Shown: positions 19,508 through 45,755 of the stretch, in pieces | How positions within the stretch are numbered: the stretch's first letter is position 1 | Layout: every line of letters begins with the position of its first letter | NCBI GenBank assembly: GCA_964401135.1 | Contig: CAYNXC010000001.1 | Location: 210,264-274,263, forward strand | Direction: 5' to 3' | DNA: 64,000 nt | From: an uncultured Candidatus Saccharibacteria bacterium | GTDB taxonomy: Bacteria > Patescibacteriota > Minisyncoccia > Phycocordibacterales > UBA9988 | Program-made: the position numbers and the translations under genes | The notes under the pieces: generated by a model | Database searches by the model: none | What the model was told of the DNA's origin: nothing | What the model saw: the letters and a program-made list of their open reading frames with translations, nothing else

Positions 19508-19508
19508 T

Positions 19509-22654: not shown

Positions 22655-25024
22655 TCAACTGCGCAGACGGGTAAGGATGGCGGCTTCAACACTTGTAAGA
22701 TCTCTCCCATATGAGAGGCGGGAAAGTTCTTTTAATTTTTCTGCAACTTCTTGAGATCCTCTCTCGGTAGTGCGCGTTTGGATAGCGAATGCAGGTGAGG
22801 GCTCCCCGTTCACCAAGAGCTTCATAATTGCGTGACGATTTTCTGTACTCATGAGATCAGATGCAGAAAAGGTTGGCTCTACATACTGCTTTAAATACTC
22901 GGCATCTTCAGCCCCCACACGGAAGAGTGCGAGTGACCCCACATTTCCGAAGACTGCCGCCTTGATGGTATCCGAAAGCTGGGCAATAAACTGATGTGCA
23001 AGAGTAAGTGAGAGATGATACTTGCGTGCTTCGGAGAGAATAACCGCAATTGAGTCTGTGGTAAAGTTTTGAAACTCGTCAATGTAGAGATAAAAATCTG
23101 TTCGTGATTGTTCCGACATATCACCTCGAGCAAGCGCGGCCAAAAGAATGCGTCCGGTAATAATCATCCCCAAGAGACCTGCATTAAGATCTCCAATCTT
23201 CCCTTTTGAGAGATTAACGAGTAAAATCTTCTTCGTATCAAGCACTTCCCTAAAGTTAAATGACGATGAAGTTTGCCCAATAATAGGTCGAATGTAATCG
23301 TTTGCAATAAAATTATTAAACTTCGAGGTAATGTAGGGGGTCATATTCGCAAGCCCCTGTTCTCCAGATGTCTTCACTGCCTCTTTTTCCCAAAAATCTA
23401 TGACAACCGGGTTGAGGATGCGAGAGAGCTTACGCTTTCTAAACTCCGGATCGGTAAAGATGCGCGGCACCTCAATCAAAGTGGCGGGTTCATTCTTCAT
23501 ATCCTCCATAAGAAGAAGGAGTGCATTACGCATATACTGCTCAAACATTGGCCCCATTGTCTCCGCCGTAAAAAGACGGTTAAAAATAGACTGGAGTTCG
23601 TTCACAATAAAGGTTCGTTCCTCCGGCTTTTCTGTCTGATGTTCCAACATATTAAGCCCTAGTGGACGCTCGCGATCTCCGGGGTCAAACACGATGACAT
23701 CATTAATACGGCTCTTTGGCACGACGCTCAAGAGGTCGGTAATAAGATCGCCATGCGGGTCTATCACACAGAGGCCGTTCCCAGCCTCAATATCTTGTGC
23801 CGCCATAGTGCGCAGAAGAGAGCTCTTCCCCGTACCTGTCTGGCCAATGAGGTAGAAGTGCCGTAGACGATCAGTGGTGGAGAGGCGCACCGCCTGTGCA
23901 TCGCCACGAAACAGGTTCTCACCAATGGTGACTCCTTCTTGGGAAAGATTTGCGGGGGGAGCCGACTCTCGTGTGCGCAACCAACTTACCCGAGGGATGT
24001 CTAAGGAGTTGGTAGGTAAGTGGAAGATACTAGCCAACTCTTCTGTATTCAAATACATACTCTCGGCATCTCTCCACTCTCTGAATGAGTAACGATACAA
24101 GAGCGACTGTGTGTCGCGAGGAAGCACCGTAACAAAGCCGTTATGTTTTGTGGTAGTGAATTGGGAAAAAGACCCCGCAATAGAAGTAAAGAGGTCATGT
24201 GCCCTATCTTCATTCCCGCCAGAAGTTACAATACGGGCAATCACAGAAAGGAGGGGACTGCCCGCCTTCCGCTCAAGCATAGCAACAGATTCTGTATCAA
24301 CGAGGGATGCGGGTTGAATCTCTACCTTCTTACTCGGTGTTGCGGTAAGCTCTTCATGGAGCTCTTTTAGCCCAAAACTAACTCCTTTCTTTACATCTTC
24401 AAGCTTTACTCCTTTTCTTAGTTGCTCAAGTGCTGATACGAGGCGCTTCTTCGCATTTTGATCAGCGGGGCGGATAAGAAACTGCAGTGAGGCACCGTCC
24501 CCTACACTCTCTAGGTGAGATAAGGTGCTCACGATTGGCGTAAAGGTGTCTAGCGAGGACTCACGATATGTCCGGATGGGGAGGATAAACGACTCTTTGA
24601 GTGAAAGATACCCCGCAACCGCAATACCATGCGGATTGAATACTGAATAGTCGTTCACACGCTCAATGCGTGCCTCAGGGTACAGGCCTCGCACCTGATC
24701 ACTTACATACGCTGCACTCTCACGAGGCACTGATGTATAGAAATAAATTTCCTCTCCAATGTGATGTACCGAGACCTCAAACACAACCGGCCTCCCGATG
24801 GCAGAGAGTGAAGAGAAGAGCTGTTCAGAGAGCGCAATATCTCGGAGTCTTCTCTCTGCATCTCCTCCCGTACCACGAGGCACAGAGATGCGTAAGAGTA
24901 CATACGAGAGGGTAGAGAGGCGCGGACTTCTAAACCACTGAAAGAGGAGTACCAGCATCACCGCGCACGAGAGTGCAGCAATCCCTCCACCAGCTATCCA
25001 CAACAGGCTAGGTAATGAGACCAT
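22655..25024 (-). CDS. VirD4/TraD/TraG-like type IV coupling protein-family ATPase (FtsK/HerA superfamily), membrane-anchored
   Basis: N-terminal TM, Walker A IGQTGTGKSSLL, CVIDPHGDL, Walker B-like YLYIDEFQNF, and LAHQF. A long roughly 380-aa domain precedes the P-loop, which is atypical. Confidence 0.6.
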   Translation of the reverse strand: MVSLPSLLWIAGGGIAALSCAVMLVLLFQWFRSPRLSTLSYVLLRISVPRGTGGDAERRLRDIALSEQLFSSLSAIGRPVVFEVSVHHIGEEIYFYTSVPRESAAYVSDQVRGLYPEARIERVNDYSVFNPHGIAVAGYLSLKESFILPIRTYRESSLDTFTPIVSTLSHLESVGDGASLQFLIRPADQNAKKRLVSALEQLRKGVKLEDVKKGVSFGLKELHEELTATPSKKVEIQPASLVDTESVAMLERKAGSPLLSVIARIVTSGGNEDRAHDLFTSIAGSFSQFTTTKHNGFVTVLPRDTQSLLYRYSFREWRDAESMYLNTEELASIFHLPTNSLDIPRVSWLRTRESAPPANLSQEGVTIGENLFRGDAQAVRLSTTDRLRHFYLIGQTGTGKSSLLRTMAAQDIEAGNGLCVIDPHGDLITDLLSVVPKSRINDVIVFDPGDRERPLGLNMLEHQTEKPEERTFIVNELQSIFNRLFTAETMGPMFEQYMRNALLLLMEDMKNEPATLIEVPRIFTDPEFRKRKLSRILNPVVIDFWEKEAVKTSGEQGLANMTPYITSKFNNFIANDYIRPIIGQTSSSFNFREVLDTKKILLVNLSKGKIGDLNAGLLGMIITGRILLAALARGDMSEQSRTDFYLYIDEFQNFTTDSIAVILSEARKYHLSLTLAHQFIAQLSDTIKAAVFGNVGSLALFRVGAEDAEYLKQYVEPTFSASDLMSTENRHAIMKLLVNGEPSPAFAIQTRTTERGSQEVAEKLKELSRLSYGRDLTSVEAAILTRLRS

Positions 25025-28524: not shown

Positions 28525-28846
28525 AGATAATCCCTTCATTAGGGATGATTTGGCAATGATGACGGACTCTTATATAGCACGCGTTACCAGTACCTGGGAT
28601 ATAGTTCCCTAAGAGCCAAGTCCCTGGAGAGGATACATTGTGAAATTGATATAGACGGGTACTACCAGGAACATAGTGATATCTCCCTGCACGAGGAGGA
28701 CCTACCATCACTACATGACCTACAGTACAAGTACAATAGATTGGCCGTCCTGTAATCCGGCCGCCAAAGGGGAGTGTGCCAGCCGCAAAAAGAGGAGAAG
28801 GGAGAAGTGTTGCCAAAAAAGCCAGTGTAATAAGTATCTTTTTCAT
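28505..28846 (-). CDS. Small secreted hypothetical protein
   Basis: Signal peptide MKKILITLAFLATLLPSPLFAAG, with Cys- and Gly-rich mature region. Confidence 0.4.
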   Translation of the reverse strand: MKKILITLAFLATLLPSPLFAAGTLPFGGRITGRPIYCTCTVGHVVMVGPPRAGRYHYVPGSTRLYQFHNVSSPGTWLLGNYIPGTGNACYIRVRHHCQIIPNEGIISIVGTS

Positions 28847-28847
28847 A

Positions 28848-29372: not shown

Positions 29373-29439
29373 ATAAGTAGTATACTGTAATTGCGTTATC
29401 CACCCAACAGGCACTCAAAATCACGCTATACTTACAGTT

Positions 29440-30297
29440 ATGAATAAGTTTGCCGCTGGTCTACTCACGGCCTTTGTTTGTGTACTCGCTTTTCTATGGT
29501 GGTTTGGTGGGAAAGTAGAACGGGGAGAAATTGGCAATGCGCTCTACACCGCAGAGAAAAAGGATGCAAAAGCCGAGATTGCCGACAGCGACAAGGATGG
29601 CCTGCGAGATTGGGAAGAACGACTCTGGGGTACTGACATACATTCAACAGATAGTGATGGAGACGGAACAGGGGATGGTGAAGAGGTCGCCCTCGGGAGA
29701 GATCCCAAGAAAAAGTCACCAGGAGATACCCTCTCAAATAAGGAGGACATTGCCCGTGCCGCAATTCACGAGAGTGTGAGCGAGGGAGGGGGCACCATAA
29801 TACCCACAACGGAGGATTTAAAACCAACACTTACTTACACCGCATTTGATATCCATACAGTGGACTCAAAGGATCAGGCTTTTCTCATAAACTATGGGGC
29901 AAGTTTGCGCACAAACTTACGGCCACTCAGCACAGGATTTGGCTCTGCAGCGAGTAATACTATTGCAGTGCTCTCAAAAAAAGATTCGGGGAGTATAGAA
30001 CGGATTAAGGCAGAAGAAACACTACTTATTACAATTACCAAAGAGTTACTCGTTCTTGATGTGCCAGAGTCAGCGAGCGTAATCCACCTTAAACTCCTCA
30101 ATTCACTCACAGAATTAGCAGAGCTCGCGTATACTATGGAGCAAGTGGAGCGTGAACCTGCGTTTGCGCTCGCCAGTGCTGAGGCATACGAAAAGAAAAA
30201 GCCCGAACTCTTGGCAGTGCTCGGTGAGATAAACGCATATTTCAAAGGAGAGGGGGTACGCTTTGATTCAAAAAATGCCGTCACTATAAGTCTATGA
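29440..30297 (+). CDS. Membrane-anchored protein with thrombospondin-type-3-like Ca-binding repeats
   Basis: N-terminal anchor, then DSDKDGLRDWEE and DSDGDGTGDGEE (DxDxDG repeats). Confidence 0.5.
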   Translation: MNKFAAGLLTAFVCVLAFLWWFGGKVERGEIGNALYTAEKKDAKAEIADSDKDGLRDWEERLWGTDIHSTDSDGDGTGDGEEVALGRDPKKKSPGDTLSNKEDIARAAIHESVSEGGGTIIPTTEDLKPTLTYTAFDIHTVDSKDQAFLINYGASLRTNLRPLSTGFGSAASNTIAVLSKKDSGSIERIKAEETLLITITKELLVLDVPESASVIHLKLLNSLTELAELAYTMEQVEREPAFALASAEAYEKKKPELLAVLGEINAYFKGEGVRFDSKNAVTISL

Positions 30298-32390
30298 AGG
30301 TACGAGAACATACACTCATTATAATCTCGCTCGGAATCGCCTTTCTTTCAATCTTTTTTGTAGGGTCGCTCACGGTACAGGCAGAGGAACAAAGGGCAAA
30401 CGATAACAGTCTTATTCAAGCTGGTTTTGATTACGGCCCACAAGAAACAATTGCTCAAGAAATTATTAATGGTCGTGCCGAGAACGACCTCAAAGAGTGT
30501 GTCGCAGAAACAGGGAATACTACCTCGGGAGGATCATCCGGTGGCGACTATGTTCCCGTGCATGAAGTGGGGGAGCTCCTCTCGCTCACCACGGGCATCA
30601 ATAAAAAAGTAACGCACGGCAACGATCTCTTGGTAGATATCTGTATGCACTTAAAGGCGATACGACGCGTGCAGTATGTAATGGAGGCACAAGTGCTCTA
30701 CCATGACCCCAATGCGCGCAAGGCCGCGGCAAAGGCAATCTTTGAACACAAACAGTCCTTCATAGAGAACAACATTAAGAAGGGTTATGAAGTTTCTCCC
30801 GCACTCCTCGGTACCAGCGGGACAGAGAGTAGTTCGGAAAATAAGCAGCCGCTCTATGTGGCAAATATGGACGAGCACCTCAAGTCTGTACGCAGTGAGG
30901 CCTACGGAGTTTTTGATGCTGATTTAACCACACTCAACTCTTCAGCAAATCCAAATATCTTCACCGATAGCATCCGCAAAAATCTTGCAGTCTCTGAAGC
31001 AGCAGGGGAGAGTGAGGAATCACGATTGAGGACATCTCTCGGGTCTACTATCACGAAAGATGAATTCAACGCCTTTACCAACGACTTCTCACAAGGTGGG
31101 TGGGATATGTGGCTCAAGGTACTTGATCCACGCAACAACTACAGAGGCTCAAAAATTCTTGCACAGGATGAGCTCAATTATAGAAAGTCACTCGCAGAGA
31201 CAAACGCGAGAGAAGAAATTGCATCAGCAAAAGGATTTCTCCCTGTTCGTGAATGTGCCACAGAAAACTGGGTAACAACTGCTGATGGGAAGAAGTACTG
31301 TAGAAAGTGGACGGTCAAAACTCCTGGGACCATCAACGAGAGTTACCTTGCAGACATTGTCGGGTCAACTCTGCGTCAAAATGAGATAGCAGATCAGTCG
31401 GTGGAAGATTTTAGCAAGACAGAGTTTGCACGCGTAGAGAGTGAGTTAACTAACCTAGAAAAGGTGGGGAAGACGGAGGACAGAGTAGCAGTACAGAGCA
31501 TCTTCCAAAAAGAGGATCCATGCCCCGGACCAGGGCCTTGTGAAGATTCTGGCTGGGTGGGGAGTAGTGCAGGAGGAGGGATAGGCGGAGGAGGAGGTAT
31601 CACTAACCCAACAACACTCGCGCAACAAATTTATAACAATAAAAATACATTACCAGGTCTCCCTGATGGATTACAATCAATCTTCAACATCCCTGGACTC
31701 TCACAGGAAGCAATCATCAAACAGATTACAGAGTGGCTTAAAAAAGATACCAATGGAAATGGTACTCCCGACTACTTAGAGAGTGAGCCCCCGAAGATTG
31801 TCTTTACTGCCGAAACCAACTCCCTTGCAATTGCGGCCGATGCGGATAGAAACACCACAAAACTTACCTGGAATGCGTGGAATGCAACGGAGTGCAGTGC
31901 GGTCAACGACTGGTTGAGTGCAAGTACGATTACAAAATCGCGCGATACCAAGCTCGCCCCAACAGGGACGCTCACCGTACGACACCCATACACCTTTACC
32001 GTGAGTCTCTCTCGGAGTCCTGACTTAAGTGGATGGAGCACGGGGAGAGTAACGAGCGTGGCGGATCAATTTCTCCTCTCTCAAAAAACAACCATTGATC
32101 TCTCTGGTCTTACTGCCGCGTCGGGGTTAAGCTTCACCCTCTCACTTGGCACCAATGCCAACCTCACTGTAGTGGGAAATAGTTCAAATCAAAATCTGAC
32201 ACAGTCATTCAAAGAAGCGTATAACACACTCTCACAGACAGATGTGAATTATTCTGCTTTGCGTGGTAAGTACGCATTCACTTTTGATATCTCAAACAAA
32301 AAAATCTACATCAGTGCCAATCCGATATACAAAATCTCTTGCACGAATGCGAACAGTACAGAATATAAAGATGTAACGATTACGCGATGA
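30294..32390 (+). CDS. Large secreted or surface hypothetical protein (698 aa), T4SS-cluster associated
   Basis: Signal peptide, a Gly-rich stretch GGGIGGGGGITNP, and no recognisable family. ATGA overlap with the previous gene. Confidence 0.5.
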   Translation: MKVREHTLIIISLGIAFLSIFFVGSLTVQAEEQRANDNSLIQAGFDYGPQETIAQEIINGRAENDLKECVAETGNTTSGGSSGGDYVPVHEVGELLSLTTGINKKVTHGNDLLVDICMHLKAIRRVQYVMEAQVLYHDPNARKAAAKAIFEHKQSFIENNIKKGYEVSPALLGTSGTESSSENKQPLYVANMDEHLKSVRSEAYGVFDADLTTLNSSANPNIFTDSIRKNLAVSEAAGESEESRLRTSLGSTITKDEFNAFTNDFSQGGWDMWLKVLDPRNNYRGSKILAQDELNYRKSLAETNAREEIASAKGFLPVRECATENWVTTADGKKYCRKWTVKTPGTINESYLADIVGSTLRQNEIADQSVEDFSKTEFARVESELTNLEKVGKTEDRVAVQSIFQKEDPCPGPGPCEDSGWVGSSAGGGIGGGGGITNPTTLAQQIYNNKNTLPGLPDGLQSIFNIPGLSQEAIIKQITEWLKKDTNGNGTPDYLESEPPKIVFTAETNSLAIAADADRNTTKLTWNAWNATECSAVNDWLSASTITKSRDTKLAPTGTLTVRHPYTFTVSLSRSPDLSGWSTGRVTSVADQFLLSQKTTIDLSGLTAASGLSFTLSLGTNANLTVVGNSSNQNLTQSFKEAYNTLSQTDVNYSALRGKYAFTFDISNKKIYISANPIYKISCTNANSTEYKDVTITR

Positions 32391-34447
32391 AGCACTGCTC
32401 ACGGATAATTGCGGGGACACTCTTTTTTCTCACTATTTTTGTTTTGTTTTTTGGTGTAGTCCAGACAGTAAATGCTCAAGCCCCTTTACCAGTAATTCCT
32501 GGGTATAACGCTCCTGACACTCCTGAATGGCATGAGATAGCAAGAAAACAAAACACAATGGTAACAGAGTCAGTGGGAGGAGAAGGGGGATTGCTTTCAT
32601 TTCTTCTTCCCAGTTTCAGTGATTTAACAAATTGGATTGGGGATGTTATTTCAACCGCACTCATTTGGCTTGCTGGCAACTTCCTTTGGTTGGGCGGCAA
32701 ACTTCTGGATGCTTCCGTCCAATTTAATGTCTGCGATATGAAGAGTCTAATGGGGACGGCTGTTGTCTCCCAGGGGTGGCTTATCGCTCGTAATATCGCT
32801 AACTTCTTCTTCATCTTCATCCTCCTCTACATTGCCATCTCTATTATTTTAAATGTTGGAGAAAGTCAAAAGAGGTTAATTGTATGGGTCGTGATCATTG
32901 CGCTCGTCATTAACTTTAGCGCCGTGCTTACGCGCTTTGTTATTGATGTATCTAACATCTTTGCCTATCAATTCTATTCAAGCATTGTGGGGGGAGGGGA
33001 TCCGTGCACCGAAGAGAGTCGTAATACAACAGGAATTTCTGCTAATTATATGACTGCATTGAAGTTTCAGAAATATGCAGAAGAAGAATCGAGCTCTGAC
33101 TCTCTCTATAAGGGTATTGAAGGATTTGGAGCAAAGACAGTGACAGGAATCATGACGGCAACATTTATTACCATCACTGCATGGAGTTTTATTATTGTCG
33201 CAGCACTAATGATTATCCGTTCCGCGGTGTTAATGATTCTTATTGTGCTCTCACCAATCGCATTTATGGGATTTATCCTACCACAAATAAAACAGGTAAT
33301 GACTAAGTGGTGGGGCGCACTTATTAGTCAAGCCTTCTTTGCGCCGGTGTACCTCTTCTTTGCCTACATCACCCTCGTCCTCGCTAAGGGTACTGTGGCA
33401 CTTTTTTCACAAGAGACTTTTGCCTCTGGATCTGAACAGATATTCAAAATCTTTTTGCAGTACTCAATCCTCATTACACTCATTGTCGTAGGACTCATCC
33501 AAGCAAAAAAGATGAGTGCCGCCGGCGGAGGGGCAGTGCAAGCGCGAGTACTTAAGTCTCTTGATTGGATGCGCGGACAAGCAACAGGAGCCATGGGACG
33601 CAATACAGTGGGGAGACTCGGCCGTCAAATCGCTGATAGTGATCGTGTTAAGAGATGGTCATCAGGCTCTGGTGGTATCTTAAAGAAAGCCGCGGGGATT
33701 CCTATTAAGAATGCAAGTGCTTCTATGGCTGGAGGGAAGTATGGTGGCGGGAAGAGTTACGATGATATTGTTAAGAAGCAAATTGAACGGGCAAAGGGAA
33801 TTGAAGACCCTGCAGATAAAGCGCGCGTCTTGGGAGGAATGAGTACTGCCGCGCGCAGAGAGTACTTTGATAGTCTCTCTGACCGTGAGAAAGCAGAGAC
33901 ACTTGATGCGGCAAAGACTCTCGGGGGCTTCACGCAAGCACGGGTAGAAGGACAGCGTGAGCGACTTACCGCAGAGCAGGTTGAAAAAATGGAGAAGGCA
34001 GGTGGAGAGGGGAAGGATGCTACACGCAAAAAAGAGCAATCCGCAGATATTGAAGCAGTGGTTGGTAATACAGAAAAAGGTATAGCTGGTCTACCAAGAG
34101 GTTCAGACGAGAGAAGAATTAAGATTGAAAAGGTGGTCACAGGACTTAAAGATGATGAGGGACGCAAACTGGCAAAGATTGTTGAAGATGCGGACACGAC
34201 CGACATTGCCACAATGTACGGGAAGATGAACCCACTTGATCTTGTAGACTTAATGGGGAAGGCTAAACTCTCAAATGATGCTAAAGAAAAACTACGAAAG
34301 GGGATGTTGGATCTTGGAGAAGATCACCCAACATTTATTGAGCTACACAGTAATCCAAAATTAAAGATCCTCTTTGGTAGTACACCAATAAACGCACCTA
34401 GGTCAGCACCGACTCCTGCTAATCCTCCAGGAACCACTACAGCATGA
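32387..34447 (+). CDS. VirB6/TrbL-like polytopic membrane protein (T4SS inner-membrane component) with a long hydrophilic C-terminal tail
   Basis: Signal peptide, then at least five or six TM helices in a TrbL/VirB6-like arrangement, then a charged roughly 250-aa tail. Start overlaps the previous gene. Confidence 0.5.
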   Translation: MKHCSRIIAGTLFFLTIFVLFFGVVQTVNAQAPLPVIPGYNAPDTPEWHEIARKQNTMVTESVGGEGGLLSFLLPSFSDLTNWIGDVISTALIWLAGNFLWLGGKLLDASVQFNVCDMKSLMGTAVVSQGWLIARNIANFFFIFILLYIAISIILNVGESQKRLIVWVVIIALVINFSAVLTRFVIDVSNIFAYQFYSSIVGGGDPCTEESRNTTGISANYMTALKFQKYAEEESSSDSLYKGIEGFGAKTVTGIMTATFITITAWSFIIVAALMIIRSAVLMILIVLSPIAFMGFILPQIKQVMTKWWGALISQAFFAPVYLFFAYITLVLAKGTVALFSQETFASGSEQIFKIFLQYSILITLIVVGLIQAKKMSAAGGGAVQARVLKSLDWMRGQATGAMGRNTVGRLGRQIADSDRVKRWSSGSGGILKKAAGIPIKNASASMAGGKYGGGKSYDDIVKKQIERAKGIEDPADKARVLGGMSTAARREYFDSLSDREKAETLDAAKTLGGFTQARVEGQRERLTAEQVEKMEKAGGEGKDATRKKEQSADIEAVVGNTEKGIAGLPRGSDERRIKIEKVVTGLKDDEGRKLAKIVEDADTTDIATMYGKMNPLDLVDLMGKAKLSNDAKEKLRKGMLDLGEDHPTFIELHSNPKLKILFGSTPINAPRSAPTPANPPGTTTA

Positions 34448-34956
34448 ACACATTAACACCAGATCAGCTCCGTGAGATATACAACTCGCTCCCTGAGGAT
34501 CTTCAAGACGCAATGGGTTCGGCACAGACCTCAGAGACAGTACGCCGTATCAGCAACAACTACGGGCTCTCACTAGATCAAATGGGTGAACTTACAGAAG
34601 AGATTGGCCTCACTATGCTTGGTGTAAACACGCTTGAAGATATGCCAAAAAATATTGCGCTTCGACTTGGCACAGATCTCCCTATGGGAACTGCTATTTA
34701 TAGAGATATTAATGGGAGTATCTTCTTAAGGGTGCAGGGGAGCCTAAAGCAAGTACAGGAGCTCCGCGAATCCAAACCTCTACTTACCTACTCCATACAA
34801 AAGGAGAAGATTGTTCCACCTTCCTCACCAACCCCAGCCCCCGTACAAGCACGAGAACAAGCCCTCCCTCAAACACCACACACTGTACTAACTTCGCCAC
34901 ACACCCCAATGCCCAACAAGTCTGCAAATGATCCGTATCGTGAAATAATAGAGTAA
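34444..34956 (+). CDS. Hypothetical cytoplasmic protein, T4SS-cluster associated
   Basis: 170 aa, overlaps both neighbours by a few nucleotides. No motif recognised. Confidence 0.4.
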   Translation: MNTLTPDQLREIYNSLPEDLQDAMGSAQTSETVRRISNNYGLSLDQMGELTEEIGLTMLGVNTLEDMPKNIALRLGTDLPMGTAIYRDINGSIFLRVQGSLKQVQELRESKPLLTYSIQKEKIVPPSSPTPAPVQAREQALPQTPHTVLTSPHTPMPNKSANDPYREIIE

Positions 34957-35387
34957 TGGATTTCCAAGTACCACAATTTATTGAGATAGAGGACAAAATA
35001 TTCGGCCCACTCACCTTCAAACAGTTTGTCTACATTGCCGGTGGAGCGGGGGCGGCATTTGTGCTGTACTCAATTCTCTCTCAATTTCTTCCTTCAGCCA
35101 TCGCAATCATCATCGCTGTCCCCCTTGTTGGCTTGGGACTTGCGCTCGCATTCTATAAAATAAACGAGCGGCCACTCATTTACCTTGTACAAGCCGCGGT
35201 GCTCTATCTTCTTCGCGGAAAGCTGTACCGATGGAGAAAAGAAGAGTATCAGTTAGGAGAAGACCGGGTGAGTCTCCCTTCCGCGCAAAAAAATCCTCTA
35301 CAGGCAACGCCTGTTCGCGGCGACCGTCTCTCTGGTATTGCATGGAATTTAGATGTTCGCAAAGAGATCCCTACCGAACATACATAA
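34956..35387 (+). CDS. PrgI/VirB3-like small membrane protein
   Basis: KIFGPLTFKQF followed by two TM helices. Size and pattern fit the PrgI family of Gram-positive-type T4SS. Confidence 0.5.
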   Translation: MDFQVPQFIEIEDKIFGPLTFKQFVYIAGGAGAAFVLYSILSQFLPSAIAIIIAVPLVGLGLALAFYKINERPLIYLVQAAVLYLLRGKLYRWRKEEYQLGEDRVSLPSAQKNPLQATPVRGDRLSGIAWNLDVRKEIPTEHT

Positions 35388-35390
35388 GCT

Positions 35391-36050
35391 ATGGCAACAA
35401 AACAAGCAAACGCTTCACAAAAATTTCTCCCTATCCGCGAAATACGCGATAGTGTTGTGGTACTCTCTGATGGTGGAATGCGTATGGCCTTAATGGCCTC
35501 GTCTCTTAACTTTGCACTGAAATCACAAGACGAACAGATGGCAATACTACTCCAGTTTCAAAATTTTTTAAATGCTCTTGATTTTCATATTGAGTTTTTC
35601 ATAGAATCTCGCCGCTTGGACATACGACCCTACCTGCGCATCCTTGAGGACCGTATGAAGGAGCAGGTCAACGATCTGGTAAAAATACAAACCAAAGAGT
35701 ATCTGGACTTTGTGCGCAGTTTTACTGAGAGTACCAATGTGATGTCTAAATCATTCTTTGTGGTAGTGCCCTACAGTCCTCCAATCATCCAGAACTCAAG
35801 TGGATTTTTTGGGAAAATGTTTAATCGGGATAAAACTAATACTCAAGCTCTAGATGAGAGTGCATTTGAAGAACATCGGACACAACTTGAACAGCGTTCG
35901 TATGTCGTTGCACAGGGACTTGCCGCGTTCGGAGTACGATCAGTCATCCTTGGTACCGATGAGCTGGTAGAGCTCTATTACAAATTATTTAACCCCGGAG
36001 AGAAGGATGCGCCACAACCGGGAAGCTACACCAACAATGCCTCTGTTTAA
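35391..36050 (+). CDS. VirB4-like N-terminal domain as a separate ORF (possible split or frameshifted virB4)
   Basis: Immediately precedes, and overlaps in another frame, the VirB4 ATPase ORF. Size of about 219 aa matches the VirB4 N-terminal domain. Confidence 0.45.
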   Translation: MATKQANASQKFLPIREIRDSVVVLSDGGMRMALMASSLNFALKSQDEQMAILLQFQNFLNALDFHIEFFIESRRLDIRPYLRILEDRMKEQVNDLVKIQTKEYLDFVRSFTESTNVMSKSFFVVVPYSPPIIQNSSGFFGKMFNRDKTNTQALDESAFEEHRTQLEQRSYVVAQGLAAFGVRSVILGTDELVELYYKLFNPGEKDAPQPGSYTNNASV

Positions 36051-37875
36051 GAAAAAAGAAGTGTCTGAGGAGGAGGCAAGTGTCTCCGTCATCCCCCGTG
36101 ATTTTTATGAGGGCAATCAACTTTCTCTCAAGGATGTCATCGCCCCTGCTGCGCTCCAAGTTAATCCAAGCTTCATCAACATTGGCGGTAAGTACGCACG
36201 CACCTTCTTTGTTATCTCCTACCCTCGACAGTTAGCAAAGAGTTGGTTTAGTCCCATCATCAACCTTGACCGTGTGTTTGATATTTCTATCTATGTGCAC
36301 CCTATTGACACTTCGGTAGTCCTCCGACAATTACAGAAAAAAGTTGCCGAGGTACAGAGCCAAATTTCAGTACGAGAGGAGCGGGGAATGGTGCGTGACC
36401 CCAAACTAGACACCGCGTACCAAGATATAGAATTCCTCCGCGACCAGCTCCAGCAATCGCGAGAAAAAATGTTTGATGTGGGTCTCTATCTCACCTTTTA
36501 TGGAGAGAGCGAGGAAGAGCTCAACAAAACAGAATCGGAAGTAAAAAGTATGTTGGAGTCAAAACTGGTATATGTGAAGCCTGCTGTATTTCAACAAGAA
36601 GATGGTTGGAAGAGCACTTTGCCGCTCGGTATGGACTTACTCTCTGTACATTCAAAATTGAACTCCTCTCCACTCTCATCACTCTTCCCCTTTACCTCGT
36701 TTGACCTTACCAGTAACCAAGGGATCCTCTACGGCATCAACCGTCACAACGCCTCACTGGTGATGTTTGATCGCTTTTCAATGGAGAATTACAACTCCGT
36801 CACCTTTGCCAAGTCTGGATCGGGCAAGTCTTACGCCACCAAACTAGAGATCCTCCGGAGTCTTATGTTTGATGTGGATGTGATAGTGATAGACCCTGAA
36901 CGAGAGTATGAGTATATGGCGGAATCTGCAGGAGGGCGTTATTTTAACATTTCACTCACTTCAGAGCACCATATTAACCCATTTGATTTACCATTTCCCC
37001 GCGAAGATGAATCGCCTGCAGATGTATTACGGAGTAACATCATTAACCTCGTTGGGCTCTTTCGTATTATGTTGGGAGGCCTCACCCCTGAAGAAGACTC
37101 TATCATTGATTCTGCTATTACAGAGACTTACGCACTCAAAGATATTACTGCAGACAGCGATTTTACCGGAAAACCTGCCCCTATCCTCTCTGACCTTAAC
37201 CTCGTACTTGCCTCTATGGAAGGAGGGGAGTCGCTCTCACAGAGACTCAATAAGTACACTCAAGGCACCTGGGCGGGGTTCTTAAACCAACCAACCAATG
37301 TAGACATCAATAAAAAGTTTGTAGTCTTTTCAATCCGTGATATGGAGGATGAGCTCAAGCCTGTCGCAATGTACATTATTATGCACCATATTTGGAATGT
37401 AGTGCGCCGGACGCTTAAAAAAAGGATTCTAGTGGTAGATGAGGCGTGGTGGATGATGAAGGCAGAAGATACAGCCTCCTTTCTCTTCTCACTCGCTAAG
37501 CGCGGAAGAAAGTACTACTTAGGTCTCGCTACCATTACACAAGATGTAGGCGACTTCTTAAAGTCACCTTACGGGCTCCCTATGATTACCAACTCATCTA
37601 TACAAATACTCCTAAAACAATCGCCGGCATCTATTGATCTTGTTCAACAAACCTTTAACCTCACCGATGAGGAGAAGTACCTCCTCCTTGAGTCAGCAGT
37701 GGGGGAGGGAATCTTTTTTGCTGGGCTAAAGCATGTAGCGATTAAGGTAATCGCTTCGTACACCGAGGATCAAATCATTACCTCCGATCCTTCGCAGGTA
37801 CTCGCCATTAAAAAAGCGAAGGATGAACTGCGAGCGGCAGAGAGTGCTGGTCCCGTTGCAGGAGCTACGGCATGA
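36037..37875 (+). CDS. virB4: VirB4/TrbE/CagE-family conjugative transfer ATPase (C-terminal ATPase portion)
   Basis: Walker A FAKSGSGKSY, Walker B LVVDEAWWMM, and the overall VirB4 motor pattern. Confidence 0.8.
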   Translation: MPLFKKKEVSEEEASVSVIPRDFYEGNQLSLKDVIAPAALQVNPSFINIGGKYARTFFVISYPRQLAKSWFSPIINLDRVFDISIYVHPIDTSVVLRQLQKKVAEVQSQISVREERGMVRDPKLDTAYQDIEFLRDQLQQSREKMFDVGLYLTFYGESEEELNKTESEVKSMLESKLVYVKPAVFQQEDGWKSTLPLGMDLLSVHSKLNSSPLSSLFPFTSFDLTSNQGILYGINRHNASLVMFDRFSMENYNSVTFAKSGSGKSYATKLEILRSLMFDVDVIVIDPEREYEYMAESAGGRYFNISLTSEHHINPFDLPFPREDESPADVLRSNIINLVGLFRIMLGGLTPEEDSIIDSAITETYALKDITADSDFTGKPAPILSDLNLVLASMEGGESLSQRLNKYTQGTWAGFLNQPTNVDINKKFVVFSIRDMEDELKPVAMYIIMHHIWNVVRRTLKKRILVVDEAWWMMKAEDTASFLFSLAKRGRKYYLGLATITQDVGDFLKSPYGLPMITNSSIQILLKQSPASIDLVQQTFNLTDEEKYLLLESAVGEGIFFAGLKHVAIKVIASYTEDQIITSDPSQVLAIKKAKDELRAAESAGPVAGATA

Positions 37876-38198
37876 AGCGTCGGATCAGTAACACCACTGC
37901 AGGTCTCCTTATTTTAGGAACACTTATTGCGGAACTACTCCAAGCAGTGACTAACTTTATTGGGGTTGGCTTCGTCTTAAACCCCATCGTGAGCATATTT
38001 ATCTGGCTCACAGCATACTTTGTATTCGCTACACATAATGTAAGTGTGTTTAGCTCTCGTAAGCTCGCCGCGGCACTCACGAGCGCTACAATAGAGATGA
38101 TCCCTTTTATTGCGGTAATCCCTGCGTGGACACTCTATGTGATATCCATTATTGTTATTTCCCGCAGAGAGGATCGTATACATCATACCGATGAGTAA
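37872..38198 (+). CDS. Small three-TM membrane protein, T4SS-cluster associated
   Basis: 108 aa, hydrophobic, overlapping start. Possibly a VirB2/VirB3-like accessory. Confidence 0.4.
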   Translation: MKRRISNTTAGLLILGTLIAELLQAVTNFIGVGFVLNPIVSIFIWLTAYFVFATHNVSVFSSRKLAAALTSATIEMIPFIAVIPAWTLYVISIIVISRREDRIHHTDE

Positions 38199-38217
38199 AT
38201 CCACAACACACCAAGGT

Positions 38218-39246
38218 ATGCGCTCCTTTCAATGGTACAATGTGCTCATGGTAAGATGCGCCATCTGTTTAATACTTCTCTTGTGTATACCAATGGGAGT
38301 GTCTGCGGCGATACTCAGTGGAGATGAGGGAGTCTCTGTGTCAGTCTCACCGGAGTACCCAGGTGCCGGAGAAGCTGTGACTATAAGTCTCTCGGGAAGA
38401 ACTTTTGATATCGATGCGGCCACTGTCACATGGACAGTAGAAGGAAAAAAAGTATTAGAAGGACCTGCTGAAAAAAATTATTCATTCACTACAAGTGAGT
38501 CCGGTGCAGTAAGTGCGATCACCGCAACAGTGCTCACGAGTGATGGCACCCGCTACCAAAAGGGAATAAGCATCAGCCCTTCGAAAGTAGACCTGATTTG
38601 GGAAGCACAAACCTATACACCACCTTTTTTTAAAGGGCACTCTCTTGCAAGTTCCGAGAGTGTAATCACCGTCGTTGCTCTCGCAGAGCTCAAGGGGGGT
38701 AACGGAACAAAAATACCTGCGAGTAAACTGATTTATAAATGGAGTAAGGATGGAAAAAATATCTCAAGCGCGTCAGGCTTAGGGAAGCAATCGTTTACTT
38801 TCACTGGAGCAAAATTATTTAATGACAATAAAGTAACGGTAAGTATTACTTCGCAAGACGGACTAGTAACAGCCGAGCGGAGCATTAGTATCCCTGTCTC
38901 TAATCCTCGTATTGTTGTCTATCCAGCTCCAGCGCTCTTAGGGACAGAGTATGGAAATGCACTCACGAACTCGTTCACATTACAAGAAGATGAGATGGGG
39001 GTCCGTGCGGTACCATTCTACTTTAGTACTACCGCAGTGGGGGCTCCTGCAACAAGGCTTGTATGGTCCTTGAATGGGAAAATTCTCCCCACAGAGCCTG
39101 GCTCAGATATGCTGGCAATATTACGAAAGGGGACGAGCGCTGGTACTGCTCGCATTAGAGTGGAGGGAGCGCACACAAGTAACCTACTCCAATCAGCCGA
39201 GTGGTCAGGAATAATTAATTTAGGATCTGGGACAAATACCTTTTAA
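38218..39246 (+). CDS. Secreted hypothetical protein (beta-rich, Ig-like repeats)
   Basis: Signal peptide MRSFQWYNVLMVRCAICLILLLCIPMGVSAA, then a repetitive beta-strand-rich sequence. Confidence 0.45.
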   Translation: MRSFQWYNVLMVRCAICLILLLCIPMGVSAAILSGDEGVSVSVSPEYPGAGEAVTISLSGRTFDIDAATVTWTVEGKKVLEGPAEKNYSFTTSESGAVSAITATVLTSDGTRYQKGISISPSKVDLIWEAQTYTPPFFKGHSLASSESVITVVALAELKGGNGTKIPASKLIYKWSKDGKNISSASGLGKQSFTFTGAKLFNDNKVTVSITSQDGLVTAERSISIPVSNPRIVVYPAPALLGTEYGNALTNSFTLQEDEMGVRAVPFYFSTTAVGAPATRLVWSLNGKILPTEPGSDMLAILRKGTSAGTARIRVEGAHTSNLLQSAEWSGIINLGSGTNTF

Positions 39247-39248
39247 CT

Positions 39249-40496
39249 ATGAAAATTATTCTTCACACACTCGTAGCATTCTCTATTTTTTCAAGCATCA
39301 TCACAGTTGCTTTTGCAGCAGAAGGGGGTGGTATTATTCTCTTAGAGCCGAGTGTGGTAAATGCGGGTGAAAATAGCCGAGTCCAATTTGGTCAGTATAT
39401 GTCAACGCTCTTTACCACCTTTATTACCGTAGCGGCAGTGCTTGCGGTACTTATGATTGTGATTGGCGGCATCCAATACATCACTTCATTCTCTGGTAGC
39501 GGTAAAGAACAGGGGAGGGTGCGCATTACCAATGCTATTTTTGGCCTCCTTTTGGCGGTATCTGCGTTCCTCATTCTCCAAACAGTGAATCCGGACTTAG
39601 TCTCGAGCGACACTCTCTCGCTTGATATTGGTAAGTTCTCTCCTATCACACAAAGTATTGCAAATGGATTATATAGCAAAGATGGAACTCGCGATGAGGC
39701 TCATGAGACTAAAGAAACAGATAAATCTGAGGAGGCCGCTGAATGGGGCCGTTGCACTCAAAATGGGTACAAAAAGTGTGTATGGATGGAAAATTGTGTC
39801 TCCATCGGGCCAGACAACCAACCTCTACCATATGTGGAAATACCAAAAAACAACTGTGACAAGCCGGCTATTGCGGACCAGATTGCCTCTTCTATATGTT
39901 GTGGAATGATAGATACTGAAAATAAAAAATATTATTTTATTAACACTGACGAAAGCTGTATTTCTTCTGCTTATAACAGCCTGAATGAATGTAACTCAGC
40001 AAAACCGAGTAACACTGCATGTAGGGATACCGAGATGACTCGTAGAGCCAACGAGACTTTAAATTACCCTCAATGTAGCAATCCTTCTGGGGGTAGTGAA
40101 GGGGGAGACACTTCAACAATTGGACAATGGCAGTATCAAACAGGGATTGAGAGACAAGCGGGAGACATGTCTAGCTCCGTTACTTCATTACTCTCCTGCA
40201 TGAGAGAGAAAATTCCTGACACATCTGTCGGGCAGATTTCTTCAATCAGTGACTCTAGACATATAGGAAACTTGTCTTCTTGTAATCAGGCAAACTGTAG
40301 TGGATGTTCTCACTCATGTAGATCTTGTCACTACGGGGGAGGAGTTTCTGGAGCTAAATCTATGGCAGTTGACTTCGGTGATGAGTGGAATAAGAAAAAG
40401 ATTATAAGTGCAGCAAGAGCATGTGACCCAGAGGCCTATATTCTTGACGAAGGGAACCATATCCACGTAAGCACAAGCGCCTGTCCTCGTGATTAA
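39249..40496 (+). CDS. Pilin-like (VirB2/TrbC-like hairpin) N-terminus fused to a Cys-rich C-terminal domain with a putative M15-like zinc-hydrolase motif
   Basis: Signal peptide plus two long hydrophobic helices separated by a short loop. C-terminal region has more than 20 Cys, SCHYGGGVSGAKSMAVDF and EGNHIHVS. Confidence 0.45.
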   Translation: MKIILHTLVAFSIFSSIITVAFAAEGGGIILLEPSVVNAGENSRVQFGQYMSTLFTTFITVAAVLAVLMIVIGGIQYITSFSGSGKEQGRVRITNAIFGLLLAVSAFLILQTVNPDLVSSDTLSLDIGKFSPITQSIANGLYSKDGTRDEAHETKETDKSEEAAEWGRCTQNGYKKCVWMENCVSIGPDNQPLPYVEIPKNNCDKPAIADQIASSICCGMIDTENKKYYFINTDESCISSAYNSLNECNSAKPSNTACRDTEMTRRANETLNYPQCSNPSGGSEGGDTSTIGQWQYQTGIERQAGDMSSSVTSLLSCMREKIPDTSVGQISSISDSRHIGNLSSCNQANCSGCSHSCRSCHYGGGVSGAKSMAVDFGDEWNKKKIISAARACDPEAYILDEGNHIHVSTSACPRD

Positions 40497-40504
40497 ATAG
40501 AACT

Positions 40505-41758
40505 ATGTCTTCCACTATTGTTAAAATTCTCTTCGGTCTCGCCATCGTCATACTCCTTTCCATTGGTGGGGGACTCATCTGGTACACACTCTTCTACCAA
40601 GCAGTGCCAGAGCCAATCAATACCGCGACAAGTTCTCCAGAGAATCTCTTTCCTGTTGGCGGAGAAGTAGAAGTAAGTACGGCAACCAGCACCGCAAGCT
40701 CTACACTTGGCGTGGCGGTAACAGGAGGAGGAGTAAGGGCGCGAGAGTTGCTTTCAAACCCGATCGCCGGATTTGGAGTATTTGGCTACTCAGCAACAAA
40801 TACGGTAGTTATTGCGGTGGATCGGAGCAATGGCCATGTGTACCGCATCTCTATTGCGTCTAGCACGGTTGAAAAAATCGCCAACACAACACTAGTAGGA
40901 GTGCAGGAGGCGTATGTAGGGGAGACTAAGAGCCTGTACTACATTATTTCTCGCTACGAGGCAAATTCAGGCTCACATACGCATATACAAAGCATTAAGA
41001 AGAGCTTGATAGCCATTACTGCAAGCTCAACAGTAAATTCGGGATCTCTACTCCCTCAAACGATCACGAGTATTGCTCTCTCCCCTAAACGAGATAGGTA
41101 TGCAACAGTGGTGAAGGGGAGTACTGGAGGGAGTATTGTATACATCACCGACTTTGCAACTGGGAAAAAACGGGAGTTGTACCGCTCACCACTTACTGAA
41201 TGGAATCTCCTCTGGCCCAACGAGAGTACACTCACCTTAGAGACAAAGGGATCATCTCGTGTACGAGGCACTCTTTTAAGTATCAACGCACAAACAGGAG
41301 CAGCGACGCGGATACTCGGTAATATAGCAGGGCTTACCTCACTTCCATCTCCCTCTCTCTCATACATCCTCGCTTCAGAGAGTAGAGATGATGGTGGAAT
41401 CAACCTATTCCGCTACACACCAAAATCGGGAGACCGAACACCACTCCCATTCTCTGTATTCCCTTACTGGTGTGTATGGGCACAAAAAACAGAAGGGTTG
41501 CTGTATTGTGCAGCTCCAGACACTATTCCTTCTGTACCCTTCCCCGACACATGGTACCGAGGGGAACTTTCTTTTAACACAAAAATATGGGAGTTTAATG
41601 TAAAAACAGGGGATAGTGAGATCGTGTGGAATCCAAATCTCACAGGGACTCTAAGAACAGAGGCACGGAACCTTGCTCTAAACTCTTCCGGGACACTCCT
41701 CTTCTACATAGACGACAATAATCTGACACTCTGGTCAGTGCGTCTCACTGATCTATAA
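40505..41758 (+). CDS. Membrane-anchored beta-propeller (TolB/WD40-like) protein
   Basis: N-terminal TM, then repeated beta-blade-like segments (ATVVKGSTGGSIVYITDFATGKKREL...). Confidence 0.45.
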   Translation: MSSTIVKILFGLAIVILLSIGGGLIWYTLFYQAVPEPINTATSSPENLFPVGGEVEVSTATSTASSTLGVAVTGGGVRARELLSNPIAGFGVFGYSATNTVVIAVDRSNGHVYRISIASSTVEKIANTTLVGVQEAYVGETKSLYYIISRYEANSGSHTHIQSIKKSLIAITASSTVNSGSLLPQTITSIALSPKRDRYATVVKGSTGGSIVYITDFATGKKRELYRSPLTEWNLLWPNESTLTLETKGSSRVRGTLLSINAQTGAATRILGNIAGLTSLPSPSLSYILASESRDDGGINLFRYTPKSGDRTPLPFSVFPYWCVWAQKTEGLLYCAAPDTIPSVPFPDTWYRGELSFNTKIWEFNVKTGDSEIVWNPNLTGTLRTEARNLALNSSGTLLFYIDDNNLTLWSVRLTDL

Positions 41759-42950: not shown

Positions 42951-43096
42951 ACGAATGGAGTATACAGAATGTATATACTTTTTTCAAGAGAATATACTTA
43001 TCCACCATAATCCACTCCTTATAAACATCTTGGATAGGTTTGTAGTTTAGTACTAAGAGTACTATAATCGCAACATAAAAATAACGAGCGGACCCT

Positions 43097-45752: not shown

Positions 45753-45755
45753 TGT

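Follow-up and report, generated by a model that had tools for sequence, protein, structure and literature searches.

The 11 densely packed plus-strand ORFs at positions 29440-41758 of the window, the 64-kb stretch of DNA that we analysed, probably represent the Paceibacteria form of a type IV secretion system (T4SS) that lacks a relaxase, is fixed in the chromosome and is found across the ultrasmall Patescibacteria, a reading that includes the mechanism and function proposed below. The locus is real and well conserved, yet it is not new, since this Patescibacteria system had been published before: Wang et al. 2023 (PMC10633639) found SEML1_0006-0019, the homologous T4SS genes of Southlakia, to be essential, Quinonero-Coronel et al. 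2025 (PMC12102498) describe a clade of T4SSs from Patescibacteria that lack a relaxase and lie near dnaA, and PMC12857230 is a review of these systems. The original prediction, a minimal Gram-positive-type, chromosomal T4SS without relaxase beside the replication origin that serves surface or host interaction instead of conjugation, is supported by the best VirB4 models, the missing relaxase and the conserved flanks. The T4SS-like cluster that it reported is real, and its description is partly confirmed.

The boundaries first given for the cluster are exact, with the first ORF starting at 29440 and the last ending at 41758, whereas the recount gives 11 genes instead of twelve. Overlapping starts and stops, as had been noticed, occur at six junctions: 4 nt at 30294/30297, 32387/32390, 34444/34447 and 37872/37875, 1 nt at 34956, and 44 nt at 36007/36050, where the reading frame of g6 overlaps virB4; at the other junctions the genes are 2-8 nt apart. 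None of the 11 tightly coupled ORFs is interrupted, and in GC content (0.45-0.48) the cluster does not differ from its flanks. These consist of housekeeping genes, as predicted. Upstream lies rsmA (27350-28126), separated from the cluster by a DUF192 gene and two small minus-strand secreted-protein genes. Downstream are yidC (41766-42464), rnpA (42472-42804), rpmH (42816-42950) and dnaA (43097-44440), with dnaN next in order; dnaA is 1.3 kb from the cluster block, and three near-consensus DnaA boxes are found at 44545-44614.

The ATPase of the cluster, g7 (36007..37875, +, 622 aa), is a VirB4 protein without the N-terminal domain (NCBIfam, PF19044). Its score against the NCBIfam CD1110-family VirB4 model (conju_CD1110), 375 bits with a curated cut-off of 325, bears out the VirB4 assignment and covers model positions 181-733 of 752; the Pfam match to PF19044 is at 6e-25. 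In the translation, we read AKSGSGKS as Walker A, and Walker B is ILVVDE at residue 474. The best VirB4 models belong to conjugative-element families of Firmicutes and Mycoplasma, namely CD1110 (a Clostridioides conjugative transposon) and the Mycoplasma ICE VirB4. We place this VirB4 in the Patescibacteria clade by its nearest neighbours rather than by a VirB4 tree, and this clade derives from monoderm MPF-FATA conjugation machinery. The preceding gene, g6 (35391..36050, +, 219 aa), encodes a detached, TrsD/TraC-like VirB4 N-terminal domain, which matches positions 99-233 of NCBIfam VirB4_plasma (E=7e-8), positions 12-119 of the CD1110 VirB4 (E=6e-3) and, in the precomputed annotation of public contigs, the TraC-like family PF26593. 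These are N-terminal stretches of the VirB4 models, so VirB4 is split in a TrsD-like manner into this 219-aa piece and the 622-aa ATPase with intact nucleotide-binding motifs. The related loci to which we compared the cluster are the best 80 of 556 confirmed VirB4-matching stretches of genome contigs; in 77 loci the g6 homologue is likewise a separate ORF of 209-239 aa, with a median identity of 55%.

Two further core components are membrane proteins. The PrgI-family (VirB3-like) protein g5 (34956..35387, +, 143 aa, two TM helices) is as predicted, with 46 bits against PF12666 (E=8e-12; gathering score 27), and is found in 77 of the best 80 loci. The polytopic protein g3 (32387..34447, +, 686 aa) had been called VirB6/TrbL-like with a long tail. 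Its topology agrees with this, with a signal/TM helix and five TM helices (six hydrophobic segments) followed by a hydrophilic tail of ~290 aa with 33% charged residues, but the family score is weak: the TrbL/VirB6 match (E=4e-4, 20.5 bits) is under the gathering score of 25.9, and just 2 of 28 orthologues match TrbL at E<=0.01. It also matches TraJ at E=4e-3, and a profile search of the PDB gave no VirB6 match. In the best 80 loci, g3 is present in 60, always with PrgI downstream. We regard it as a tentative, weakly supported VirB6. No VirB8-like protein was recognised in the operon.

The predicted pilin-like protein, g10 (39249..40496, +, 415 aa), exceeds the gathering score of Pfam T4SS_pilin (28.3 bits, threshold 26.6) and is more complex than first described: it combines a VirB2-like module with a predicted LAS-fold (DD-peptidase/Hedgehog-type) domain. 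A signal peptide is followed by the two-helix VirB2-like pilin module (residues ~47-113), a Cys-rich beta domain and the C-terminal Hedgehog/DD-peptidase-fold (LAS) domain (residues ~295-415), which has no sequence-level match in Pfam or the PDB. In comparison with the LAS metallopeptidases (MEROPS M15, including the Streptomyces Zn DD-peptidase, VanX and phage L-Ala-D-Glu endolysins, and the Hedgehog N-domain), this domain has a longer first His-Asp spacing (13 residues) and extra conserved cysteines. Among the homologues listed, the match is C-terminal, and the majority of these proteins have a pilin domain. Positional orthologues of g10 bear other cell-wall enzyme domains, namely YkuD, NlpC/P60, VanY, SLT and CHAP. 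In the VirB1-like hydrolases PrgK, TraG of pIP501, CwlT and Tn916 Orf14, which are encoded inside Gram-positive T4SS operons, an N-terminal membrane anchor precedes one or more extracytoplasmic peptidoglycan-cleaving domains. The g10 orthologues resemble these hydrolases in carrying NlpC/P60, CHAP and SLT, whereas in g10 itself a VirB2-like pilin module serves as anchor and the head is a LAS-fold domain without a Pfam model, not SLT or CHAP. The sections of PMC12102498 that we consulted describe neither a pilin fused to a cell-wall enzyme domain nor conserved accessory genes for Ig-like and propeller proteins.

The cluster also encodes five accessory proteins that are secreted or located in the envelope, including a triple-Ig-like and a likely TolB-like propeller protein. 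One of them, g9 (38293..39246, +, 317 aa; gene-caller start, the longest ORF starting at 38152), is found in 76 of the best 80 loci and has a signal peptide and three Ig/FN3-like beta-sandwich domains. Its AlphaFold2 model (pLDDT 73) shows these three domains, in agreement with the Ig-like protein predicted, and Foldseek matches it to the Ig arrays of Hoc, Sidekick and SiiE with E down to 1.7e-9. The beta-propeller claimed for g11 (40505..41758, +, 417 aa) is probable, the orthologue profile giving a weak match to the TolB propeller (E=1.4e-3); the protein is anchored by one TM helix (residues 8-26) and is present in 66 of the 80 loci. For g1 (29440..30297, +, 285 aa), the claimed TSP3 repeat, of a calcium-binding type, does match PF18884 TSP3_bac (E=7e-5), but at 23 bits, under the gathering score of 25; the orthologue profile matches the Bap surface protein (E=5e-5). 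This protein, found in 30 of the 80 loci, has an N-terminal anchor (one TM helix, residues 4-22) and a C-terminal domain without recognised fold. The 698-aa protein g2 (30294..32390, +), present in 24 of the 80 loci, is secreted or anchored by an N-terminal hydrophobic helix; it contains a single glycine run, but with 7.4% glycine overall the earlier description as Gly-rich is weakly supported. It has no match in Pfam, NCBIfam, PHROG or the PDB, and its orthologues range from 301 to 1206 aa. Between virB4 and g9 lies a 108-aa protein with three predicted TM helices, g8 (37872..38198, +), for which no known family was recognised; a small ORF with at least 2 TM helices occupies this place in 41 of 73 loci. 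The soluble protein g4 (34444..34956, +, 170 aa), found in 34 of the 80 loci, has no TM helix and no family match in Pfam or NCBIfam, nor a PDB match, and its orthologue alignment reveals a conserved C-terminal DPYRE motif with invariant D163, P164, Y165 and E167.

A divergent VirD4/TraD-like P-loop ATPase (22655..25024, -, 789 aa, with an N-terminal TM helix) is encoded outside the operon. The gene and its strand are as predicted, but it lies 4.4 kb from the cluster start, not ~8 kb, and ~11 kb from virB4. It matches PF10412 (27.1 bits, threshold 20.5) and PF02534 (24.9, threshold 20.1), as well as TraD models at 7e-11 with coverage limited to the Walker A region, and contains Walker A (GQTGTGKS) and Walker B (YLYIDE) motifs. 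We regard it as a candidate coupling protein, which makes coupling of DNA or protein conceivable. Directly downstream of this gene is a 321-aa LysM/Peptidase_M23 cell-wall hydrolase (21500..22465, -; PF01551 6e-32, LysM 8e-23), with a possible link to the T4SS. Elsewhere in the window, a PilB-type ATPase is encoded at 51889-53607, 10 kb from the cluster, on the other strand and among unrelated genes.

In the mechanism that we propose, a VirB4 hexamer would dock on the membrane via PrgI/VirB3 and the VirB6-like channel, and would then power extraction or assembly of the pilin-like subunit, or substrate export. The predicted extracytoplasmic peptidase head of g10 would cut the peptide stems of peptidoglycan, either in the cell's own wall for assembly of the apparatus or in the host wall at the contact site, while the Ig-like, propeller and calcium-binding proteins may form the wall-spanning or host-contacting part, substituting for the missing VirB7/9/10 and adhesins. 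Given the lack of a relaxase in the window, the most likely function is transfer of proteins or other molecules between epibiont and host rather than DNA conjugation. We infer a role in host interaction from the homologous cluster that is essential for epibiotic growth of Southlakia epibionticum, as determined by Tn-seq in this one Saccharimonadia species.

The opposite direction of transport, with a T4SS-based importer taking up host DNA, nucleotides or other macromolecules to feed a cell unable to make nucleotides, as in archaeal Ced or H. pylori ComB, is unlikely. It is consistent with the missing relaxase, with weak matches of VirB4 to the DNA import protein CedB (E=1e-9) and of the VirD4-like ATPase to CedD (E=3e-5), and with the speculation on uptake of host molecules in PMC12857230. 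However, the Ced match is far under that of the conjugative VirB4 models (38 vs 375 bits), and no CedA-like channel protein was recognised. Moreover, deletion of comEC in S. epibionticum abolishes competence without affecting viability, whereas the T4SS stays essential (PMC12857230), which argues that DNA uptake for transformation is not the essential role of the T4SS.

As claimed, the scanned ORFs of the window contain no relaxase (~60 ORFs), VirB9/10 or VirB11 family. Conjugation could nevertheless persist if DNA were transferred via the VirD4-like ATPase, with its intact Walker motifs 4.4 kb upstream, and a relaxase too divergent to be matched or encoded elsewhere in the genome; the 11 window ORFs without any family match could hide a novel one. 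We consider this very improbable, since no MOB family was matched in the window, the locus, flanked by housekeeping genes, shows vertical conservation and, according to PMC12102498, relaxases are found in just 103 of 3,035 Patescibacteria genomes and the T4CP homologue is non-essential in S. epibionticum.

The conservation of the locus bears on its mobility. VirB4 is 73-79% identical across the best 80 of the 556 matching stretches; these 80 come almost entirely from Patescibacteria (Paceibacterota, Parcubacteria and other Patescibacteria MAGs, or MAGs labelled only 'bacterium'), and the suggested synteny check beside dnaA revealed the order UvrD-RsmA-cluster-YidC-DnaA-DnaN in the majority of the 46 loci that span 21 kb or more. 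Together, these two observations indicate that the cluster is a fixed chromosomal locus and not a mobile element. A decaying integrated conjugative element, inserted by chance beside the origin, would account for components derived from monoderm conjugative elements and for the loss of the relaxase and several canonical subunits, but this explanation is effectively refuted by the conserved synteny, and is also at odds with 11 of 11 intact ORFs and a native GC content. Neither integrase nor repeats were seen flanking the cluster, as had been claimed for the integrase, and the sole tyrosine recombinase in the window is XerC/D-like and 19 kb away. Finally, a type IV pilus or Tad locus misread as a T4SS, as the pilin-like protein, the many secreted proteins and the PilB-type ATPase in the window might suggest, is ruled out by the VirB4 family score above the curated cut-off and by the pilin, which has two TM helices and belongs to the VirB2/PF18895 type rather than to the type IV prepilins, the PilB gene being distant and on the other strand.

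The relaxase-free T4SS that we favour can be compared with three sets of known systems. With the MPF-FATA systems, represented by C. difficile conjugative transposons (CD1110-type VirB4), pCF10 Prg/Pcf, pGO1 Trs and Mycoplasma ICE, it shares the best-scoring VirB4 models, the PrgI match, a pilin-like module (that of g10) matching the Mbov_0395 family and the lack of a VirB7/9/10 outer-membrane core; the split VirB4 resembles the pGO1 TrsD/TrsE arrangement, as given in PMC12102498. In contrast to this fixed chromosomal locus without relaxase, MPF-FATA systems are found on mobile elements with relaxase, oriT and an adjacent coupling protein, and transfer DNA. The T4SS of Southlakia epibionticum ML1 (SEML1_0006-0019, PMC10633639) has the same core order of VirB6-like, PrgI, TrsD-like and VirB4 proteins, long hydrophilic VirB6-like tails, PF18895 pilins and no recognisable relaxase. 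It differs in having a second VirB6-like gene, an NTF2-like (VirB8-like) protein and six short pilins arranged in an array. In our cluster, by contrast, the single pilin module is joined to a peptidase-fold domain, and an NTF2-like protein was not recognised. Essentiality is known from a different class, Saccharimonadia, with short-pilin arrays and not fusions. From the Patescibacteria T4SS in its Paceibacteria arrangement, as catalogued in PMC12102498, the cluster shows no difference at the system level. That account covers the Patescibacteria VirB4 clade, TrsD, PrgI, VirB6 and VirB2-like pilins, reports that relaxases are rare and places the systems near dnaA, dnaN, rnpA, ksgA and rpmH. The cluster likewise has a VirB4 with MPF-FATA affinity beside a TrsD-like protein, together with PrgI/VirB3 and VirB6-like proteins, a VirB2-like pilin (PF18895) in the vicinity of virB4, no relaxase, a VirD4-like gene away from virB4, and dnaA, dnaN, rnpA, rpmH and ksgA (rsmA) as neighbours.

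The type IV secretion (T4SS) cluster consists of eleven consecutive plus-strand genes, g1 to g11, at positions 29440-41758; the original prediction gave these limits exactly and counted twelve genes, one too many. The encoded proteins have 285, 698, 686, 170, 143, 219, 622, 108, 364 (317 from the gene-caller start), 415 and 417 aa, and the junctions between successive genes are either overlaps of 1-44 nt or gaps of 2-8 nt. A scan for promoters and terminators returned sites no more numerous than in shuffled sequence. On one side the cluster is flanked by UvrD (25380-27359), RsmA (ksgA, 27350-28126) and, on the RsmA side, DUF192 (28096-28524), and on the other by the minus-strand genes of YidC (41766-42464), RnpA (42472-42804) and RpmH (42816-42950), followed by DnaA (43097-44440) and DnaN (44658-45752), with three near-consensus DnaA boxes at 44545-44614. 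Gene identification thus bore out the predicted setting between rsmA and yidC-rnpA-rpmH-dnaA. Two small secreted-protein genes lie on the minus strand between DUF192 and the operon (28505-29414), one encoding a Cys-containing protein of 113 aa, for which 13 related loci have a counterpart in the corresponding position, and the other a protein of 188 aa with an IPT/TIG domain.

A search of species-level genomes with the VirB4 of the window gave 556 confirmed matching stretches, and the best 80 of these are 73-79% identical to the query. These 80 loci are labelled mostly as Paceibacterota, Parcubacteria or other Patescibacteria, and some just as 'bacterium', so that the affinity of this VirB4 to Patescibacteria is a nearest-neighbour result among the best 80 of 556 matches. 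When all window proteins were compared with these loci by tblastn, VirB4 (g7) was detected in 80 of 80, g6 in 79, the PrgI protein g5 in 77, the Ig-like protein g9 in 76, the propeller-like protein g11 in 66, the VirB6-like protein g3 in 60 and the pilin fusion g10 in 58. Among the 46 loci with a length of 21 kb or more, most share the order UvrD-RsmA-(DUF192)-g1..g11-YidC-DnaA-DnaN. The exact VirB4 protein is found on 19 independent public contigs and the exact DnaA on 16, with the same neighbours at the places listed, and the cluster has the same GC content (0.45-0.48) as its flanks. The locus is vertically inherited and chromosomal, and is not an island.

The ATPase g7 matches the VirB4 family PF19044 at 6e-25, and scores 375 bits against the NCBIfam model conju_CD1110 (curated cut-off 325), the runner-up being the Mycoplasma ICE VirB4 with 263 bits; by these scores it is a VirB4 of the monoderm (FATA) type. 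The only family returned from PHROGs, a 'terminase', is evidently a P-loop cross-match. Since g7 spans positions 181-733 of the conju_CD1110 model, it is without the N-terminal domain, which is instead encoded by the preceding gene g6 (219 aa), aligning with the Mycoplasma ICE VirB4 model over positions 99-233 (E=7e-8) and with the CD1110 VirB4 model over positions 12-119, and carrying a TraC-like match (PF26593) in precomputed annotation. In 77 loci g6 is an open reading frame of its own, of 209-239 aa, and the split of VirB4 is therefore not a frameshift artefact. When the g6 alignment was set against that of VirB4 from the same loci with hhalign, no signal appeared (probability 0.25%), as expected with the N-terminal domain absent from g7, and a search of the g6 profile against the PDB returned nothing useful; the relation is settled by the full-length VirB4 models of NCBIfam. 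This TrsD-like protein adjoining virB4 is the 'TrsD' component of Quinonero-Coronel et al. (PMC12102498).

Just upstream, g5 is a PrgI/VirB3 protein near virB4 (PF12666, 46 bits against a gathering score of 27). The VirB6-like protein g3 is a weaker call: its TrbL/VirB6 match (20.5 bits) is under the gathering score of 25.9, only two of 28 orthologues match that family at E<=0.01, and its profile found no VirB6 in the PDB, the only matches being coiled-coil or low-complexity proteins that align through the tail. Because the sequence scores are weak, the assignment depends on three other features: the six hydrophobic helices, the charged tail, about 290 aa long, and the conserved position upstream of PrgI. 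Topology and gene position are in keeping with a VirB6, and the family match itself does not reach threshold.

The remaining proteins of the operon are mostly predicted envelope components. After a signal peptide, the g9 protein is modelled as three Ig/FN3-like beta-sandwich domains (AlphaFold2, pLDDT 73, from an alignment of only 10 homologues), and Foldseek matched this model to Ig arrays with E down to 1.7e-9. The g11 protein is anchored by a TM segment and has a weak match to a TolB propeller profile (E=1.4e-3), and the protein of g1, likewise membrane-anchored, carries TSP3-like calcium-binding repeats. For g2 (698 aa) and g4 (170 aa) no matches were obtained and PDB profile searches gave nothing useful; g2, previously described as Gly-rich, is not truly so. 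The small g8 protein (37872-38198) has three TM helices. Of 73 related loci, 41 have, in the interval from virB4 to the Ig-like gene, a small open reading frame for a protein of two or more TM helices. In about 22 loci this frame is absent and the two genes abut. The sequence of g8 is highly divergent, and tblastn detects it in only 13 loci.

The g10 product (39249-40496) is not a plain pilin. It begins with a signal peptide and a VirB2-like two-helix module, continues with a beta domain rich in Cys and ends in a domain of about 120 aa. The T4SS_pilin family PF18895 is matched with 28.3 bits against a threshold of 26.6, and the scan of 57 positional homologues, among them the window protein, detected it in 54; a VirB2-like pilin (PF18895/PF04956) thus lies near virB4. 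At least 189 proteins contain the C-terminal domain, most of them together with PF18895, and it has 378 cluster representatives (50% identity), the match being at the C-terminal end of the proteins listed. It has no match in Pfam and none by sequence in the PDB, and a PDB profile search with g10 returned nothing useful. The AlphaFold2 model is confident for this domain (pLDDT above 90), which has the LAS/M15 fold, of Hedgehog/DD-peptidase type. In LAS/M15 zinc peptidases the metal is held by His, Asp and His ligands and a further His is catalytic (H..D and HxH). Across 60 homologues of the g10 domain H355, H361, D375, H404 and H406 are invariant, as are several cysteines, and as a pattern these residues fit the LAS/M15 metal site and are putative ligands.

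In positional orthologues of g10 the C-terminal tail belongs to a variety of families: YkuD in four, NlpC/P60 in three, Amidase_5 and VanY in two each, SLT_2, SLT and CHAP in one each, and no recognised family in many (examples of orthologues, by related locus, are L047:12833-13783, L069:12914-14005, L029:12825-14120 and L059:12813-13913). Grouped by BLASTP, the 37 tails that reach 60 aa form 25 unrelated clusters; the identity of VirB4 across these genomes is about 75%. We tentatively propose that the Paceibacteria 'pilin' gene downstream of virB4 may be modular, with a conserved VirB2-like module and an exchangeable cell-wall-active head as its host-specific working part. If the T4SS presents or delivers the g10 head to the host wall, swaps of the head would fit the epibiont to the chemistry of the host peptidoglycan, and g10, if this is true, would be a host-range determinant analogous to polymorphic toxin/effector systems.

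Taken as a whole, the system is, with high confidence, a T4SS of the Patescibacteria clade, and a non-conjugative role in host interaction is the probable one. What the analysis shows directly is which components are present, how they span the membrane (judged by hydrophobicity), that the genes are packed as in an operon, that the chromosomal position is conserved and that no relaxase was found in the window; the mechanism is built on established knowledge of VirB/D4 and Gram-positive T4SSs. In this mechanism VirB4 hexamers would dock at the membrane via VirB3/PrgI and the VirB6-like protein, and would power extraction or assembly of the pilin, or else substrate export. The g10 head would lie outside the membrane, as does the C-terminus of VirB2, and is predicted to cleave the peptide stems of peptidoglycan, of the cell's own wall or of the host's, in a VirB1-like role, which in monoderm systems is taken by PrgK, TraG and CwlT. 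The Ig-like, propeller and calcium-binding proteins may form wall-spanning or host-contact parts.

Among other readings, an import machine of the Ced/ComB type is unlikely, though it is the best placed of them. Conjugation with an unrecognised relaxase is very improbable: in agreement with the original prediction, no relaxase/MOB, VirB9/10 or VirB11 family was matched by Pfam in the approximately 60 open reading frames covering the 64-kb window. The gene of a VirD4-like ATPase lies apart from the operon and on the other strand (22655-25024, minus), as had been proposed, at 4.4 kb from the cluster and not about 8 kb; it is divergent, scoring just above the Pfam gathering scores, and its NCBIfam matches cover only parts of the protein. 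This gene is preceded by a family-less open reading frame of 133 aa (25008-25409, minus) and followed by a hydrolase with LysM and Peptidase_M23 domains (21500-22465, minus), on which converges a frame of 721 aa (19338-21503, plus) with no Pfam match and only weak ClpV/ClpB-like matches. A decaying integrated conjugative element, to which we give hardly any weight, is rejected: the sole tyrosine recombinase of the window is XerC/D-like (9260-10180), and conserved synteny and native GC are found instead of an integrase-bounded, variably present island of foreign composition. A type IV pilus or Tad locus is next to impossible, the ATPase being a VirB4 and the pilin of VirB2 type, with neither a PilB/TadA-type ATPase nor type IV prepilins in the cluster. 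A PilB/GspE-type ATPase (T2SSE and MshEN domains; 51889-53607, minus), a component of type IV pilus machinery and not a VirB11, is encoded elsewhere, 10 kb from the T4SS.

Several other features of the window were recorded. The dnaA-dnaN segment (43000-46000) has a GC content of 0.28-0.36, against about 0.46 on either side, and the steps, near 43.0 kb and 46.0 kb, are sharp and lie within coding sequence. An assembly chimera at these steps is rejected by the recurrence of the same DnaA, with the same neighbours at the places listed, on the 16 independent contigs; the low GC could reflect AT pressure linked to the origin, or the dnaA-dnaN pair could have been replaced. At 61528-61600 (plus), ARAGORN reported a 'tRNA-Stop' with anticodon TTA, and Rfam a tRNA with 71 bits. 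Under canonical numbering the anticodon loop is CUUUUAA, with U33, UUU at 34-36, A37 and a 5-nt variable loop, so that the gene is an ordinary tRNA-Lys(UUU) and the suppressor tRNA an artefact of an alternative stem register. Adjacent genes for VKOR and a DsbA-like thioredoxin (519-1665, minus) constitute an extracytoplasmic disulfide-forming pair, which fits with Cys-rich exported proteins of the T4SS operon such as g10. A tripartite-efflux-like operon (1855-5323, plus), encoding an HlyD-like membrane-fusion protein, a MacB/FtsX-type permease and an ABC ATPase, sits in an organism thought to be single-membraned.

The proposal of a minimal, chromosomal, non-conjugative T4SS is thus supported, though the system is already published: the locus type, the missing relaxase and the origin-side position are known, and this is no new kind of system. 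Patescibacteria T4SSs are nevertheless of real interest, and the window offers a clean Paceibacteria example with its full context. It also provides two handles. The first is the conserved set of accessory envelope proteins, namely the Ig-like protein with its three domains, the TolB-like propeller and the calcium-binding anchor; the second is the fusion of a pilin module to peptidoglycan-active domains that can be interchanged, which points to cell-wall cutting in the working of the machine.

The survey of 3,035 Patescibacteria genomes by Quinonero-Coronel et al. (2025; PMC12102498) describes a monophyletic Patescibacteria VirB4 clade nested in MPF-FATA, with TrsD, PrgI/VirB3, VirB6 and VirB2-like pilins near virB4, VirD4 homologues mostly encoded apart from virB4, and relaxases in only 103 of the genomes. 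In Paceibacteria, virB4 is described there as adjoining dnaA, dnaN, rnpA, ksgA and rpmH; the same neighbourhood is found in the window, whose locus has exactly the Paceibacteria arrangement of that account. The survey also associates VirB1 homologues with virB4 in Paceibacteria specifically, and these are probably the g10-type gene seen from the enzyme side; in the literature searched, including sections of that paper, we found no mention of a pilin-enzyme fusion or of swappable heads. The Southlakia cluster SEML1_0006-0019, which Tn-seq found essential for epibiotic growth in S. epibionticum only (Wang et al. 2023; PMC10633639), shares the core order VirB6-PrgI-TrsD-VirB4 with the window, but differs in having six short pilins and an NTF2-like protein. 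Its authors suggest that the T4SS may export proteins or serve otherwise, rather than transport DNA, and it is from the essentiality of this homologous cluster for epibiotic growth that we infer a host-interaction role for the window locus. A 2025 review (PMC12857230) regards the Patescibacteria systems as newcomers to the T4SS superfamily, and as the first T4SS with demonstrated essentiality for its own bacterium.
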